In this document: positions 9,145 to 15,297 of the stretch, one piece after another
Position numbering within the stretch: the stretch's first letter is position 1
How the letters are laid out: each line of letters begins with the position of its first letter
Source of the DNA: an uncultured bacterium
Lineage (GTDB): Bacteria > Krumholzibacteriota > Krumholzibacteriia > LZORAL124-64-63
NCBI GenBank assembly: GCA_963727525.1
Contig: CAVSGO010000007.1
Coordinates: forward strand, 320,001-384,000
Length of the DNA: 64,000 nucleotides
Direction of reading: 5' to 3'
Notes under the pieces: generated by a model
Seen by the model: the letters and a program-made list of their open reading frames with translations, nothing else
What the model was told of the DNA's origin: nothing
Databases searched by the model: none
Made by a program: the position numbers and the translations under genes

Positions 9145-10179
9145 CTAGCCCGGCTCGATCCGCCCCTCTCGCTCGTGCCAGAACCGATGGCAGCGGCTGC
9201 AAAGGGTGATCAGATTCTCGGGTCGATTGGGGCCCCCCTGGCCTCGCGGCACGATGTGATGCACTTCGAGAAAGTGCGCCGCGTCACACCCAGGCGTGGC
9301 GCACCGATATCGGTCGCGCGCAAGCACCGCTGCCCGGATCTTCGGCGGAATCGTGGCGCGATTTGGCGCCCATGTGCCATCGCGGACCCGGGCATCGCAG
9401 ACCGTTGCGGCCGCGTCATTCGGAGAGAGGCGCTTCTCACCGTGACTGGTGACAGCCGCGGCAGCCTCGCACGTCGGACACTGCCGGACGATGATCTGGA
9501 CCGGCGGCCGCCCCGTAGCCGTGGTGCCGGCACCAATGGCCTCATCCCCGGTCCCCCCGGCCAGCGCCGCCAGGGCGGCGAGCAGGATCTCCTCACGCGT
9601 TGTCTCGCTCAATACGTGCCGCCGTTTGCGCACCTTCTCGATCAGCGCTTCGAACCGCGCGAGCTGGATCCCGTCGAGCCTGAAGCTGACCGTCGTGGGC
9701 GGATCCTCCTGCGGCCGCGCCTCTGGTGCCGGCACCATTGCGAGCTGGGCGGCGGGCGATTTCACCCTCTTCGCCCGGGCCTTCCTGACCTCGACGGCGA
9801 GCTCGCGGCGCCCGAGCCGACTCGCCTTCTCGACCCAATTAGTCTCCGTGGCCGGCGTAGCGACCGCCCCGACCTGCTGGGCCTTCGTCCAGCCGATCGA
9901 ACCATCAGCGACAGCGGCACGCAGTCGGGGAAGGCGTTCGAGATCGTCTGCGAGGCGTCTGAATCGGAAGTAGCGATCGCGTGAGAACCCGAGGGACTGG
10001 GTGGCATAGAGTTCCAGGGATGGCTGGCCGAGGTCGCGGTATAGCCGCCTCTGTGCGACCTCAGCGAACCAGAGGACAGCGCACTGCTGAGCCTGTTCGC
10101 AGACCTCGAGTGCTGCGCGAAGCGCATGGTCGACCGACTCGGCGGCAAGGCCGGGGGTGAAGGCCGGGAGCTGGGGCAT
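9145..10179 (-). CDS. HNH endonuclease with long N-terminal helical region
   Basis: C-terminal VLARDRYRCATPGC...LEVHHIVPRGQGGPNRPENLITLCSRCH; extra CPTC motif; start at 10179 (MPQLPAF) chosen over the AT-rich extension to 10275. Confidence 0.85.
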   Translation of the reverse strand: MPQLPAFTPGLAAESVDHALRAALEVCEQAQQCAVLWFAEVAQRRLYRDLGQPSLELYATQSLGFSRDRYFRFRRLADDLERLPRLRAAVADGSIGWTKAQQVGAVATPATETNWVEKASRLGRRELAVEVRKARAKRVKSPAAQLAMVPAPEARPQEDPPTTVSFRLDGIQLARFEALIEKVRKRRHVLSETTREEILLAALAALAGGTGDEAIGAGTTATGRPPVQIIVRQCPTCEAAAAVTSHGEKRLSPNDAAATVCDARVRDGTWAPNRATIPPKIRAAVLARDRYRCATPGCDAAHFLEVHHIVPRGQGGPNRPENLITLCSRCHRFWHEREGRIEPG

Positions 10180-10426
10180 GGCGGAGTGGGCGCTTTCTGG
10201 GAGGAAAGGGGTAGCGAAAATATAGCGAAACAAAACTGCGGGGCGCAAGTGGATAACCCAATAATTGTTGAGCAATTAAGCTCTCATATCTACGGGTGTG
10301 CCTATTGGGGAAATATTGTGCCGTCGCACGAATTCCGGTCGTTTTCGGTAGCCGATAACTATGAAATTCGGTTAGAATCCTGCAATCGAGGATGTGGATC
10401 CCACCTCGAGACACGGGGAGCCTCCC

Positions 10427-10743
10427 ATGAAGACCCGAAGCTGTCGTCTGTTTCTTGGCTACGGTAGCTGCGTTGCTTTGGTACTTCGTCCCGATATGCC
10501 TATGGTGCTGGCTATCAAGCAGACCAATCAGTCGAAGGCAATCCTGTCCCCGGTGATCCTTTAGGTGGCGTTCAGGATGCCCTAAGTGGTGGCGGTGGGC
10601 CGAATGGCGACAATCCAGTGTTTGTCATAGTTATTGGACCTTCCGAGTGCGTTCGTGGGCTTCACCACTCTGCTCCGTGGATCGTACTTGATAAAGCCGA
10701 TCTTCGGATTGTCGCGGTTCAGCTGCGCGGTGAAGTGCATTAA
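10427..10743 (+). pseudogene. Putative small secreted peptide gene, apparently frameshifted
   Basis: RBS GGGGAG at 10415-10420 then ATG 10427; hydrophobic stretch EAVVCFLATVAALLWYFVP in one frame; open frame 10468-10743 (YAYGAGYQADQSVEGNPVPGDPLGGVQDALSGGGGPNGDNPVFVIVIG...) ending in TAA that overlaps the next ATG (TAATG). Joining needs two single-base deletions. Confidence 0.4.
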
Positions 10744-13235
10744 TGTATCACATCGTGCACCTACATCTAAGTGGCATGCAGACAATGAATGAGCTTCGTA
10801 GAAACGCGGAAACCCTCGATAAAGCAGTCGATCCTCAGGTCTTCGATGAGGCGAAGTCTTGTTTTGAAACGGAGAATTCCAAGACAGTCTGGCAATATTG
10901 TGGCGCAACTCCTTTCCGGATCCCAATCCACAATCGCTTTAGCGGGTATTTGTGTTCGCGATTGTTGGGTCTAGCTGGCGTGGAATCATGCAAAAGCTCG
11001 GTAGATATGATGAGTGTACGGAGTTGTTGGACTGGCTCGCAAAACAATTGGACGATGACGTAACGTTATTTGAGATCGAGCTAATTCGTGGTTGGGTCCA
11101 ATTTTGTAGATGCGGGTACGAGCTGCTAGAGTCGGAATTTTCAGACAAGATTTCGCAAGCGGTTGAGTCTTGGCATCCGAGGCTGGCAGATCTTTTATTC
11201 ATACGTGCAAATGCCCGGATGATGTTAGACCGACGCGCAGATGCCAAATTCGACTGCGAAGTTGGCTACCAGATATCCCGAATTCAGGCGAAGCGTCACG
11301 ACTCCGCAAAGTTTGCTAATCTACTTGGTATCCTGGAAGTTTATCAGGGTTTTTACATGCGGGCAGTCGAGTGGTTCGAGGAAGCATATCGTCTTAATCT
11401 TGAACTCAATATATTCGCGCGACTGTGGGATGAATTGCTTAAATATAGGTGTTGCATGCTATAAAGCCGGATATCTCGACAAATCAGTTGACCACTTGGA
11501 CAGGGCACTCGCGTATTTTACGGATTTTGCAATTCCAATCAGTCTCACCCGCACCCACATCGCCCTTGGCAACGTCCACCGCCTCCTGGAAGACCACACC
11601 ACCGCCCGCAAACATCTGACTCAGGCCTACACGCTGGCGGCGGAGTTGAAGGTGCCGCGCGAGGAGTGTCTGGCGCTCGAATTCCTTGGCGACGTCTATC
11701 GCGATGAGGGCAAGCCGGAGGAGGCGCGGCGTTACTACGCGCGCGGGATGGCGATCGCGCAGGAGATCGCGCCCAGGGGTGACCTGGTGATGGAGTTGCG
11801 GCGTCGGGAGGGCGAGTGTCTGACGCTGGAGGGCAAGGTGGCGGCGGCGTTGCCGGTGCTGAACGAGGCGCGCAAGCATGCGGCGCGGCTGGGGGATCGT
11901 TACGAGGAAGGGGTGACGCTGCGTTGCCTGGCGCAGGCGATGCAGGCGATCGGCGATGTGCGCAACGCGCAGCGTTACGCGGAGGAGGCGTGCGATCTGC
12001 TGGGGGCGATCGAGGCGCGGCTGGAGCATCTGTCGGCGCGGTTGGTGGCGGGTCAGGCGTTGATCGCGCGCAGTAGCGACGTCAAGGAGGAGGTGGCGCC
12101 GCGGGATCTGCTGGATGCGGCCTGGGAGCATGGTGTGGCGGCGCAGGCGCTGAGCCGTGAGGTGGGGATCGCGTCGTGGTCGTCATCGGTGCAGCGGATG
12201 CAGTCGCGGATCGCGAAGCGGCGGATGGAGGAGACGCGTTACGCGGTGCGGCGCGTGCAGAGCAAGGACGATCGCTACGAGGCGCGGGACGTGATCGTGG
12301 CGCAGTCGCGTTCGATGCAGGAGGTGCTGCAGGCAGTCGAGGCGTTTGCTCCGTACGACGAGCCGGTGCTGGTGATCGGGGAGACGGGGACGGGCAAGGA
12401 AGTGATCGCGCGGCGCTTGCATGAGCTGAGTCCGCGGCAGGGGAAGCCGTTCGTGGCGGTGAACATGACGGCGGTGCCGACGACGATGTTCGAGCGTGAG
12501 TTCTTCGGCCACGTGCGGGGTGCGTTCAGCGGGGCGGAGATGGACCGGACGGGCTACGCGGCGGAGGCAGATGGGGGGACGCTGTTCCTGGACGAGGTCG
12601 GGGACATGCCGTCGGAGGTGCAGGCGAAGCTGCTGCGGTTGCTGCAGGACGGATCTTACAACGTGCTCGGGGATCCGGACACGCGGTATGCGGATCTGCG
12701 GGTGATCGCGGCGACGAACCTGGATCTCGAGGAGGCGGTGGCTCAGGGGAAGTTCCGGGAAGACCTTTTCTACAGGTTACGGATCCTGGAGATCCACCTG
12801 GCGCCGTTGCGGAAGCGGCCCGAGGACGTGTTGCCGCTGCTGGAGCACTTTCTGAGCGAGGCTGTGGGGCGGAAGGTGGCGGCGACGGATTACTTCAGCA
12901 CGCAGAGCCTGGGCCTGCTGCAGCGTTACCCGTGGGCAGGGAATGCGCGCGAGGTGGCGTTGATCGCGCGTCGGGCGGCGATCAGCCAGAAGGTGCTGGG
13001 CGTGGTGGACGTGGAACTGGGCAGCGGTCGCGACGCGTTGGTGCTGGCGGGTCCGGGTCGTCAGGCGAAAGCGGCGGCGGGATCGTCGGGCGCGGGGGAG
13101 GTCGCGGAGCTGTCGCGGGCGCGGTTGCTGCTGGCGCTGGAGGAAGCGGGAGGCAATCGGGCGGAGGCGGCGCGGCGGCTGGGGATCTCGCGGGCGGCGC
13201 TGTACCGGCGGCTGGAGAGATTCGGTTTCGACTAG
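10743..13235 (+). pseudogene. TPR-containing sigma54-dependent transcriptional activator (bEBP) whose 5' part is broken by two apparent frameshifts; C-terminal frame (from about 11427) intact
   Basis: Walker A GETGTGKE, GHVRGAFSGA, Walker B LFLDEV, FREDLFYRL, WAGNARE, Fis-type HTH GNRAEAARRLGISRAALYRRL; TPR-like helices in track ORFs 10743..11063, 10952..11464 and 11241..13235 join by adding one A at 10992-10995 and removing T11426. Confidence 0.75.
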
Positions 13236-14455
13236 CCATCGTTGGCCATGGCCGCTCCGGCGATGGCGCCGCCGGTCCAGGCGGCCTGCAGATTGAAACC
13301 TCCCGTGATGCCATCGATATCGAGGATCTCGCCGGCGAAGTAGAGGCCGGCTACGCGTTTGCTCTCCATGCAGCGCAGGTCGACCTCGGTGAGCGTTACG
13401 CCGCCGCAGGTGACGAACTCGTCCTTGTTCAGGCTCTTTCCCGTCACGGCGAAGCGTGCGTCGTGGATCTGTGTGGCAAGGGCGCGGGTCTCCACCTTCG
13501 TCAATTCGGTCCAGATGCGATCGGGCGCGATCCCGGCGGCGCTGGTGAGCCGTTCCCAGAGTCGGCGGGGGACGCCGATCGCCGGTCCCCCGGCGACCTT
13601 CTTGCGCGGGTGCTCCTGTCGGGCCTGGGCGATGGCGGAGGCGAGGTCGTCGGGATGGAGGTCGGGCGCCCAGTCGATCGCGATCTCGAACAGGTAATCG
13701 CGCATGGCGAGTTCGCGCGCTCCCCAGGCCGAGAGTTTGAGCACGCCAGGGCCACTGATGCCCCAGTGTGTGACGAGCACCGGGCCCTGCTGGCGCAGGC
13801 TCTTGATGCCGGTCACGGCGACGACCGCGTCGGGCACGCTGACGCCCGCCAGGTCGGCGAGTCGCGGGTCGTCGATGCGAAACGTGAAGAGAGAGGGCAC
13901 GGGATCGATGATCGCGTGGCCAAGCGCGCGCACGAGCGTTTCGCCGCCGCCGGCGCGCATGCCGCCGGATGCCACGAGCAGTCGGTCGCCGTGAACGGTC
14001 GCCCCGGACTCGAGGGTGACGACGAAGCCGTCGTCGTCGCGTCGCACCGAGGTGGCTCCGCAGCGCAGGCGCAGCTCCACGCCGGCCGCCTCGGCGGCGC
14101 CGAGGAGGGCGTCGATGACTGTCTGCGACGAGTCGGTGGTGGGGAACATGCGACCGTCGGACTCGGTCTTCAGGGGCACGCCGTGCTCCGCGAACCAGGC
14201 GACCGTCTGGGGCACGTGCCAGCGACTGAAGGGGCCGCGCAGCTCGCGGCCGCCACGCGGATAGCTCGCGACGAGGATGCGGGGGTCGTGGCAGTCGTGA
14301 GTGACGTTGCAGCGTCCGCCGCCCGAGATGGCCACCTTGGTCAGCGGTCGCGGTCCCTTCTCGAGTACCACGACCTGGGCGCCGTGCTGCGCGGCGTGGA
14401 TAGCGGCGAAGGTGCCGGCGGCGCCGGCGCCGATGACGACGATCCGTCGGGCCAT
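13232..14455 (-). CDS. NAD(P)/FAD-dependent oxidoreductase, HI0933/BaiN family
   Basis: VIGAGAAG, KVAISGGGRCNVT, GRMFP, VTHWGISGP, VTCGGV, GLYFAGEILDIDGITGGFNLQAAWTGG. Confidence 0.92.
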   Translation of the reverse strand: MARRIVVIGAGAAGTFAAIHAAQHGAQVVVLEKGPRPLTKVAISGGGRCNVTHDCHDPRILVASYPRGGRELRGPFSRWHVPQTVAWFAEHGVPLKTESDGRMFPTTDSSQTVIDALLGAAEAAGVELRLRCGATSVRRDDDGFVVTLESGATVHGDRLLVASGGMRAGGGETLVRALGHAIIDPVPSLFTFRIDDPRLADLAGVSVPDAVVAVTGIKSLRQQGPVLVTHWGISGPGVLKLSAWGARELAMRDYLFEIAIDWAPDLHPDDLASAIAQARQEHPRKKVAGGPAIGVPRRLWERLTSAAGIAPDRIWTELTKVETRALATQIHDARFAVTGKSLNKDEFVTCGGVTLTEVDLRCMESKRVAGLYFAGEILDIDGITGGFNLQAAWTGGAIAGAAMANDG

Positions 14456-14457
14456 GC

Positions 14458-15297
14458 TCACACTTGCCTCCGCGCGCCAACCGTGAGCGCGACGATGTAG
14501 ATGATGGCGGCCACGAGAATGGTCGCCGCACCAGTCGGGAGGTCCCAGCGATAACTCGCCGCCAGGCCGACCGTGGTGGCCACGGCGCAGATGACGACTG
14601 CGCCAGCCATCATGGTGCCGAGTCGGGAAGTGAATCGGCCGGCGGCCGCGGCCGGCAAGGTGAGCAGGGCGATGGCCATGACGATGCCGACGACGTATAC
14701 CAGGCTCACGACCGTGAGCGCCACCAGCACGAGGAGTAACGTATGCCATAGACCGACGTGCAGTCCGCGCAGTGCCGCGAATTCCTCGTCGAACGCGACG
14801 GCGAGCAGCGGCTGGGCGAAGATCGCGGTGATGCCGAGCACGAGTGCATCGAGGACCAGGAGCACGCCGAGCGCGCGCCCATCGACCATCACGATGTTTC
14901 CGAAGAGGTAGCTCATGAGATCGGACTTGTAGCCGGGCGTGCGAAAGAGGAAGAGCACGCCTATGGCCATGCCAACGGCCCAGAGCGCGGAGATGATGGT
15001 GTCCTCGCGATCCGTGCCGCGGGCGCGAGCCCAGCCGAGGATCAGGGCCGCGACGATCGCGGCGGCCACCGCCCCGTGCAAGGGATGCAGCCCGGTCCAG
15101 CCCTGCGTCACGTGCAGGTAATATGCGGCGCCCATTCCGCCGAGGATGGTGTGGGCGAGGCTTCCGGCAACGGCCGTGATGCGACGGGTGACCACGAAGG
15201 TGCCGATCACGCCGCAGGCGAGGCTGGCCGCGAGTCCGGCCAGGAGGGCCTGGCGCAGGAAAGCGTAATGACGCAGCGCGTCCAGGAAATCAGGCAT
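14458..15297 (-). CDS. znuB: Zn/Mn ABC transporter permease
   Basis: Multi-TM; GVIGTFVVTRR...SLAHTILGG, YLFGNI, AFDEEFA; overlaps the ATPase gene. Confidence 0.88.
   Translation of the reverse strand: MPDFLDALRHYAFLRQALLAGLAASLACGVIGTFVVTRRITAVAGSLAHTILGGMGAAYYLHVTQGWTGLHPLHGAVAAAIVAALILGWARARGTDREDTIISALWAVGMAIGVLFLFRTPGYKSDLMSYLFGNIVMVDGRALGVLLVLDALVLGITAIFAQPLLAVAFDEEFAALRGLHVGLWHTLLLVLVALTVVSLVYVVGIVMAIALLTLPAAAAGRFTSRLGTMMAGAVVICAVATTVGLAASYRWDLPTGAATILVAAIIYIVALTVGARRQV

Follow-up and report, generated by a model that had tools for sequence, protein, structure and literature searches.

The 64,000-nt stretch of DNA analyzed here (the window; G000:C7:320001-384000), from an uncultured bacterium of Krumholzibacteriota, contains a locus at which a gene for a small, probably exported protein is followed by one for a sigma-54 activator with an N-terminal array of tetratricopeptide repeats (TPRs). 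We found that this gene pair recurs at all assessable loci of two overlapping sets of relatives and at more distant loci of the phylum, and that in three pairs of loci the small protein and the first TPRs of its partner have been replaced together. The window copy itself reads as an inactivated, decayed copy of the two-gene operon (a pseudogene), with about five +1 frameshifts and one probable stop codon within positions 10200-11600. We give an even chance to the combined reading that the AAA+ motor of the activator is gated through the N-terminal TPRs, with the small protein or a fragment of it as their cognate ligand, and that the window copy has lost its sensor half. At the family level, the TPR activator and the exported small protein may represent an undescribed candidate signal/receptor pair; a literature search, which covered mainly titles and abstracts, found no account of such a pairing between a TPR sigma-54 activator and a small exported protein.

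A small gene with a signal-like N-terminus precedes the TPR activator in related genomes

The TPR part (residues 1-340) of an intact paralogue of the window activator, encoded on contig C5 of the same genome, was matched in 80 of the 91 genomes of the order, often several times per genome. Thirty loci of the order were fetched, of which two lacked enough upstream DNA and 28 were assessed. A same-strand open reading frame (ORF) of 75 to 145 amino acids (aa) was present before the activator at all 28, ending -143 to +8 nt from the estimated activator start, and each of these small ORFs has a hydrophobic N-terminus and a GDP motif (28/28 for both). The two genes overlap by 11 nt at 14 of the 28 loci and by 4 nt at 6, and the junctions at the other 8 range from an 8-nt overlap to a 137-nt gap. 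For a second set, each GTDB species was represented by a single genome and scanned for the peptide pattern LE[FY]LGDVxRD, which yielded 85 relatives, of which 80 were kept; this set largely repeats the genomes of the first, so that the two sets overlap and are not independent. A script requiring the GDP motif detected the small gene at 66 of these 80 loci, inspection added two more (L050 and L082), and the remaining 12 have less than 450 nt of upstream DNA, which gives 68 of 68 assessable loci. Where the sequence titles of the second set name a phylum or class, they mostly read Candidatus Krumholzibacteriota or Krumholzibacteriia, with a few given as Fibrobacteraceae, Gemmatimonadales or "bacterium". 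The loci of both sets and the distant ones described next are all counted as Candidatus Krumholzibacteriota.

The pairing extends to more distant relatives. A profile of the TPR domain matched 165 of the 208 genomes of the phylum at E<=1e-25, and 13 of the weaker matches were fetched, nine from another family-level group and four being outliers of the window's own family. All 13 loci carry an upstream, overlapping ORF of 113 to 159 aa with a signal-like N-terminus, with G[EH]DP in the nine (mostly GEPGEDPHL) and GDP in the four. In the proteins of the other family-level group of the class (L138-L146) the motif reads GEPGEDPHL(K/R), and the C-terminus is often ...WLWQLHR; these proteins form a sister subfamily of the GDP proteins. 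When a profile of the small protein was searched against 1.84 billion cluster representatives, 284 were matched at E<=1e-3, almost all of them 100 to 145 aa long. The GDP motif is present in 145 of the 146 newly listed representatives that were examined, a count that is not independent, since the profile itself contains the motif.

The genes beside the pair vary by orthologue group and include those for a ResB-like protein (22 loci), an aldo-keto reductase (13), an M3 peptidase (11) and a hybrid kinase (11). The neighborhoods thus change, and it is the pair itself that is conserved as a unit. At least three metagenome-assembled genomes (MAGs) have three different pairs each. The initial annotation of the window locus had suggested that homologues of the activator be checked for an upstream ORF of about 100 aa with a signal peptide and a GDP motif, and a small upstream ORF with a signal-like N-terminus and GDP or G[EH]DP was found at 28 of 28 and 68 of 68 loci in the two overlapping sets and at all 13 of the distant loci.

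The small protein is predicted to be exported and carries one invariant motif

As judged from its sequence, gene 1 encodes a protein of 100 to 145 aa that starts with a predicted Sec-type signal peptide and contains the invariant G(E)DP motif, a Gly/Asp-rich stretch that is probably disordered and a short hydrophobic strand-turn-strand. Among 66 proteins, the length ranges from 75 to 146 aa (median, 126.5); at L034/L080 a small gene is cut to 75 aa and ends 137 to 143 nt before its activator. By a heuristic analysis of the N-terminus, 63 of the 66 have K/R in the n-region, ahead of a hydrophobic core of 10 residues, with small residues preceding the probable cleavage point, and the GDP motif lies at a median of 18 residues past the heuristic cleavage site, in the context E-G-D-P-[GLI]-D-[GS]. 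The only invariant columns in an alignment of 27 sequences, from which the shortened L034 protein was left out, are M1, G40, D41 and P42, and the invariance of G(E)DP points to selection on the protein itself. AlphaFold2, run with the 27-row alignment, predicted a helix at residues 2 to 17 only, the rest (predicted local distance difference test [pLDDT], 54 to 59) being disordered or not predictable. No meaningful match in Pfam or NCBIfam was obtained for the 27 small proteins, a word-indexed protein search returned only "hypothetical protein" names, and the ESM Atlas scores of 0.80 are at chance level. A recurrent C-terminal GRWHxAR/P corresponds to the ribosome-binding site of the activator and its MR(A/S)(D/E) start read in another frame, and it arises because of the 11-nt or 4-nt overlap with the activator start.

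The activator is predicted to sense through TPRs rather than a receiver domain

Gene 2 is predicted to encode a cytoplasmic sigma-54 enhancer-binding protein (EBP) whose sensor is an N-terminal TPR superhelix of about eight or more repeats, with no receiver (REC) domain. The TPRs occupy residues ~1 to 340 or more, N-terminal to the AAA+ and helix-turn-helix (HTH) domains, and the open frames of the relatives are mostly 810 to 950 aa long. In the window activator, Pfam identified PF00158 (6e-63, over the full 168-position profile), TPR_12 (5e-16) and HTH_8 (1.4e-11), whereas Response_reg had no match at E<=0.01 in any of the three pieces searched. The PF00158 AAA+ domain has a GAFTGA-type sigma-54 contact loop, seen as GAFSGA in the translation, the C-terminal HTH is of the Fis type, and the genome encodes rpoN (Sigma54_DBD at C7:592828-593304, E 1.3e-62), as in sigma-54 EBPs. 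No NCBIfam equivalog scored above its cut-off with the activator.

The TPR domain was modeled with 17 helices at a pLDDT of 94.7. Its best solved structural matches are TPR domains of LGN/Pins in complex with extended NuMA, Inscuteable and FRMPD peptides (template modeling [TM] score, 0.68 to 0.72), and the Rap-Phr complex ranks 45th. The likeness of the model to LGN/Pins reflects generic TPR geometry and is compatible with a long disordered partner, no more than that. A complex prediction for the TPR domain with the mature small protein (score 0.04, mark 0.32) is evidence neither way.

The small protein and the first TPRs have been replaced together

Two related genomes (loci L105 and L109) share 90 to 100% DNA identity over about 6 kb except for some 800 nt at 37 to 49%, and this divergent block extends from just past the GDP codons of the small gene to about codon 185 of the activator. 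The corresponding protein identities are 0.98 for the signal peptide and the part before GDP, 0.24 for the part after it, 0.36 for TPR residues 1 to 190, 0.97 for TPR residues 190 to 340 and 0.96 for the AAA+ domain. For the pair L104/L122, DNA identity is 0.36 to 0.54 across the small gene and up to about codon 220 of the activator and rises to 0.8 to 0.89 thereafter, and the window locus and its C5 paralogue likewise exhibit the block pattern, with identity resuming at about codon 253. Pherotype loci typically exhibit just such a pattern, in which a signal gene and the part of the receptor that senses the signal change together within sharp bounds, and the co-replacement seen in these alignments fits a cognate signal/receptor pair.

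The window copy is broken in its 5' part and matches an intact paralogue in its 3' part

Among the EBP genes of the genome, 25 matches to the activator were found, the window's own included. The match on contig C5 is an intact gene of 819 aa, directly preceded by an intact ORF of 109 aa that has an MK-basic start and a hydrophobic stretch, followed by QAEQSV..PIPGDPLGG, and whose TGA overlaps the activator ATG (ATGA). The C5 copy has all three features of the family, namely the signal-like N-terminus, the GDP motif and the upstream position overlapping the activator. A third TPR sigma-54 activator in this genome (C3:131916-133706; L003) is 39% identical and has a GAYTGA loop. The features of the window locus are listed in Table 1.

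Table 1. Features of the small-gene/activator locus in the window (frames are numbered 0 to 2)
Feature	Position	Strand	Details
Low-GC block	10200-11600		GC 0.43-0.58, against 0.62-0.77 in both flanks; holds the small-gene remnant and the first ~250 activator codons
GG-N10-GC match	10370-10383	+	44 nt upstream of ATG 10427
Shine-Dalgarno-like GGGGAG	10414-10419	+	7 nt 5' of ATG 10427
Remnant of small exported-protein gene (predicted)	10427-10743	+	Start in frame 2 (MKTRS); signal-like stretch ~10442-10479 in frame 0; then frame 1 to TAA 10741-10743
GDP codons	10552-10560	+	Frame 1; sole invariant motif of the small-protein family
TAATG	10741-10745	+	Stop of the frame-1 remnant overlaps an ATG
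TPR sigma-54 activator gene, 5' end broken	10785-13235	+	Frame 0 to ~10881, frame 1 to ~10984, frame 2 to ~11414, frame 0 to stop
Probable in-frame TAG	10972-10974	+	In the frame-1 segment; Leu in two homologues
Longest intact ORF, 664 aa	11241-13235	+	TPR_12 11553-11765; Sigma54_activat 12294-12797; HTH_8 13104-13223
Near-identical tract, 1673 bp	11544-13216	+	99.94% DNA identity to G000:C5:48879-50551 (minus strand)

The near-identical tract stops 19 nt short of the stop codon of the window gene, and the two paralogues are otherwise diverged; the tract is read as a very recent gene conversion or (partial) duplication. Upstream of 11544 the likeness is at the protein level only, with C5 residues 67 to 207 being 43% identical to the frame-2 translation of window 10985-11407 and the residues from 214 on matching in frame 0. 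Among the 80 loci of the second set, no two different activator loci within a genome were found to share a comparable tract (>=90% identity, >=300 bp), the sole match in that search (L056/L118) being the overlap of two stretches of the same contig. The 3' two-thirds of the window locus look intact only through their match to the paralogue.

A frameshift-aware alignment to the 819-aa C5 protein starts at ATG 10785 and is gapless except for 1-nt skips near 10881, 10984 and 11414, so that the TPR region of the window activator is scattered over frames 0, 1, 2 and 0. Three 1-nt shifts and the probable TAG fall within the first ~215 codons, and the gene is not open in a single frame. A shift placed a few bases before the TAG would bypass this stop, at the cost of a conserved LAW(N) match to two homologues. 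The first ~60 residues of the 664-aa ORF, which also carries AAA_lid_14 (Pfam), are out of frame relative to the homologues. The initial annotation had described a TPR-rich protein without REC that starts at 10743 and ends in AAA+ and Fis-HTH domains; Pfam confirmed these domains and gave no REC, but the frame from ATG 10743 ends at the stop 11061-11063. The TAATG stop/start overlap on which that start was based is present in the sequence, and it is probably not the true junction, since the N-terminus of the paralogue aligns from ATG 10785.

The upstream gene had been read in the same annotation as running from ATG 10427 through a Gly/Pro/Asp-rich segment to TAATG. The ribosome-binding site and the ATG are indeed in place, and the stretch GGAGCCTCCCATGAAGA around this start region is common to the window and the C5 paralogue. 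However, the ATG belongs to frame 2, which stays open for 45 codons and ends at TAG 10562-10564 (45 aa), and the Gly/Pro/Asp text EGNPVPGDPLGGVQDALSGGGG (10534-10599) is in frame 1, which is open solely from 10468 (after a TAG) to 10743 and whose earliest start codon is GTG 10618. Because its ATG lies in frame 2 and its GDP text in a frame 1 that lacks a start, the gene so described is a chimera of frames.

What the locus holds is a remnant of the small gene. The frame-1 piece is 51% identical to residues 25 to 63 of the C5 small protein in a genome-wide search (E 1.6e-4) and 50% identical over 36 aa in a second alignment, with an E value of 0.35 against the family profile alone. Conservation of the 10468-10743 frame, on which the initial annotation had staked its proposal, was thus observed for the GDP stretch. 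Aligned to the L016 homologue, the window gene has two +1 shifts, and the signal peptide carries on in frame 0 (VVCFL match); aligned to the C5 protein alone, it has a single shift near 10503. The GDP motif and the position of the family are retained, and reading the gene takes one or two frameshifts.

The broken part coincides with a block of low GC content. Since six intact relatives in other genomes (L016, L017, L018, L020, L021 and L034) also have a GC content of 0.39 to 0.61 in the small gene together with the initial 900 nt of the activator gene and of 0.62 to 0.73 in the remainder of the latter, low GC recurs in intact sensor modules and is therefore not a sign of decay. No DNA relatives of the block were found in 90 other genomes of the family, and neither Rfam families nor repeats were found in 9900-11700. 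Abutting the block is a divergent HNH endonuclease gene (9145-10275, minus strand; 376 aa; PF01844, 2.6e-11), which may be a mobile-type gene beside a recombined locus. On the other side, an HI0933-like flavoprotein gene (13232-14749, minus strand; PF03486, 2.4e-71) converges on the activator and has 4 nt in common with its stop region; the first ~100 residues of this ORF, as listed, look over-extended.

The operon is probably not sigma-54 auto-activated

The initial annotation had also pointed out the GG-N10-GC match upstream of ATG 10427, which would be a minimal sigma-54 promoter. Such matches occur 1369 times in the window against 1353 +/- 30 in shuffled sequences, which is chance level, and at the corresponding spot the C5 paralogue has, by eye, GG-N9-GC. 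Within the 300-nt regions preceding the small genes at 65 loci, where GG-N10-GC was scored against TGGCACG-N4-TTGCW, sigma-54 sites were no better than on the opposite strand or in the activator interior, and at 18 of the 65 loci GG-N10-GC is wholly absent. In contrast, TCTTGACC, a -35-like box of the TTGAC type, is enriched in the upstream 250 nt of the small genes at the 65 loci (L045-L124), where it occurs at 16 loci versus 0 of 65 controls. The operon is probably not sigma-54 auto-activated, because sigma-54 sites are at background and a -35-like box is enriched instead. A circuit in which an intact peptide gene is transcribed from the promoter at 10370-10383 under auto-activation by the TPR activator, has the placement of a GG-N10-GC 44 nt ahead of ATG 10427 in its favor; given the chance frequency of that match, the N9 spacing in the paralogue, best scores across loci no higher than in controls, the TTGAC-type box and the broken frames of both window genes, we regard it as very improbable.

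The RWH codons (TGGCAC) with which many small genes end were considered as a sigma-54 -24 box and rejected, as this stretch is the ribosome-binding site and start of the activator. The element CCTCCCAGGAGC, also enriched, lies at -17 to -8, at the ribosome-binding site, and its CCTCC before GGAG is partly complementary to the Shine-Dalgarno sequence.

Possible decay of the window copy and a proposed role for the small protein

An intact window copy, with the frameshifts being assembly or consensus errors in a compositionally odd and perhaps strain-mixed stretch of a MAG, is possible, although we consider it doubtful. Errors would account for the uniform direction of the shifts (+1 in five of five), a pattern unusual for random decay, for an alignment to the paralogue that is otherwise gapless and for frame segments that are all stop-free despite ~48% GC, and some of the shifts may be of this kind. 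Real decay is favored because of the TAG, which stands where two homologues have Leu, because the shift sites, as examined by eye, lack long homopolymers, and because broken copies occur in other genomes, with an in-frame TGA in G001:C6:93242-94264 and an in-frame TAA in G029:C313:108-839. Furthermore, the error explanation is at odds with the finding that none of the 25 activator matches to EBP genes of this genome, the window's included, is interrupted by a stop within the matched part. From the damaged copies in other genomes, the shortened small gene of L034/L080 among them, single cassettes seem to be lost often. Decay of the window copy is held together with the ligand model below, and for the two jointly the case for and against is evenly balanced.

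According to the ligand model, the small protein, or a peptide cut from it, would be exported and would act as the cognate ligand of the first TPRs, and its binding would control assembly of the AAA+ ring and transcription by sigma-54. Specificity would lie in the part of the small protein after GDP and in TPR residues 1 to ~200, which would be swapped jointly as allele-like blocks. In the window copy, the sensor half would have decayed, and the output half would be a recent acquisition from the intact C5 paralogue, by overwriting or by copying. An exported product may meet a cytoplasmic sensor by re-import or by binding before export; the genome encodes three Opp-type binding proteins, which only permits a re-import route.

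Several observations weigh against the ligand model. Co-replacement of the small protein and the first ~190 to 250 TPR residues is seen in three pairs only, and over all 1830 locus pairs the divergence of the small protein tracks that of the first TPRs no better than that of the AAA+ domain (partial rho, 0.20 versus 0.17). Of the covariation of peptide and TPRs that the initial annotation had proposed to look for, block replacement was found at three locus pairs, and mirror-tree style correlations did not discriminate. The co-varying pieces are contiguous, and one recombination event between conserved flanks could swap both in the absence of a functional link. In length the small protein exceeds known pheromone precursors, and the motif that it conserves is near the mature N-terminus rather than the C-terminus. 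Nor does a conserved third gene (for a transporter or a peptidase, for example) accompany the cassette, the neighbors of which differ between groups, and no sigma-54 match of >=10/11 positions is present within ~10 kb of either cassette in the genome. Finally, the C3 activator lacks an upstream signal-bearing small gene, and the TPR activators of this genome are not all paired.

The contiguity of the co-varying segments and the undiscriminating all-pairs correlations would suit an envelope or secreted protein whose gene is linked to that of the activator by co-transcription only, or acts as its leader, the shared hypervariability reflecting relaxed constraint or hitch-hiking on one recombination tract; part of the small protein's conserved C-terminus (GRWHxAR/P) is likewise explained by the overlapping ribosome-binding site and activator start. 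We think such an absence of any direct link unlikely, as the two genes have stayed together wherever a locus could be assessed, across six or more family-level groups of the class and amid changing neighborhoods, the invariant G(E)DP argues for selection on the protein, and TPR sensors bind peptides or proteins while no other candidate ligand is encoded nearby. Somewhat less probable still is a partner switch, in which the TPRs would bind the small protein in the cytoplasm as an anti- or co-activator, Sec export would remove it and the output would report export flux. Precedents for this type of control include FlgM/sigma-28 and TPR chaperones that act as co-activators in type III secretion (IpgC-MxiE, for example). 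Tight translational coupling would supply both proteins together, the small protein is predicted to be disordered like many chaperone clients, the cassette comes with no importer or processing enzyme, and re-import across two membranes would not be needed. On the other hand, general Sec export is not known to be gated, which leaves the sensed quantity obscure, and an allele-like replacement between near-identical loci such as L105/L109 of related genomes is more typical of signals passed between cells than of partners that stay inside one cell.

If the ligand model is correct, the pair would constitute a second, independent form of the logic by which TPR receptors read peptide signals and a new class of EBP input, and the intact C5 genes provide a directly testable pair. 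More tentatively, and with less confidence than we place in the model itself, Krumholzibacteriota may use genetically encoded, exported peptide or protein signals that are read by cytoplasmic TPR-sigma-54 sensors, each cell having several private channels and strains differing in pherotype-like alleles, the logic of RRNPP systems having been invented independently in diderms. The window locus also carries a lesson for annotation, as a pseudogene whose 3' part seems intact by virtue of matching a paralogue, a lesson that stands or falls with the same evenly balanced reading.

Comparison with known systems

In its AAA+ domain, its GAFTGA-type loop (GAFSGA here) and its C-terminal Fis-type HTH, the activator resembles EBPs of the NtrC/NifA/PspF class, and it differs from them in that the sensor is a TPR array and not a REC, GAF, PAS or V4R domain. 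Unlike the PspA-type inhibitor, which is cytoplasmic, the partner encoded here has a predicted signal peptide. The TPR model is most like LGN/Pins (GPSM2) bound to NuMA, Inscuteable and FRMPD1/4 (4g2v, 3ro2, 4wnd and 3sf4), which has eight TPRs and holds long, extended, disordered peptides in its inner groove, an arrangement that suits a disordered partner in the present case. However, LGN/Pins are eukaryotic polarity proteins with 15 to 21% sequence identity to the model, a likeness that is no evidence of common ancestry or of a common ligand.

Pherotype polymorphism is well known from the signal/receptor loci PlcR-PapR, ComQXP and agr. Like these, the loci described here have a sharply bounded divergent block over the signal gene and the sensing part between near-identical flanks, in this case in three pairs.

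The RRNPP systems of Bacillota, phages and plasmids (Rap-Phr, NprR-NprX, PlcR-PapR, PrgX, Rgg-SHP and AimR-AimP) share with the present pair a gene for a cytoplasmic TPR receptor directly beside a small gene whose product has a basic-hydrophobic, signal-like N-terminus, the occurrence of more than one kind of pair in a genome, and a signal and sensor part that co-vary as allele-like blocks. In the portions of a survey that define these systems, a five-point signature comprises a propeptide of 10 to 100 aa (21 to 50 aa when validated), a Sec signal cleaved by signal peptidase I (Sec/SPI), a receptor of 250 to 500 aa, TPRs and adjacent genes, clusters with N-terminal TPRs having been discarded; cytoplasmic TPR receptors for genetically encoded peptides are presented there as a specialty of Firmicutes, with diderms signaling by small molecules (PMC10075063). 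Set against this signature as far as it is given there, our pair has TPRs in the receptor and direct gene adjacency (an overlap of 4 or 11 nt at 20 of 28 loci), and for the secretion signal a heuristic likeness (K/R in the n-region of 63 of 66 proteins; predicted helix 2 to 17). It departs from it in the size of the propeptide, encoded here by an upstream gene of 100 to 145 aa that overlaps the receptor start, in the size of the receptor (800 to 900 aa), and in the position of the TPRs, which are C-terminal to the output domain in the signature and here are N-terminal and fused to a sigma-54 AAA+ domain and a Fis-type HTH. The host, moreover, is a diderm of the FCB group, and homology of its TPRs to those of RRNPP receptors is unsupported by the structural ranking of Rap-Phr. 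Of the RRNPP-like peptide-receptor pair wired to sigma-54 that was initially proposed for the window, the conserved pairing with a REC-less TPR activator holds, whereas the window copy is broken and its family lies outside the RRNPP signature in lengths and domain order. The cassette is not a member of RRNPP, as far as that signature defines it, but it may work like one.

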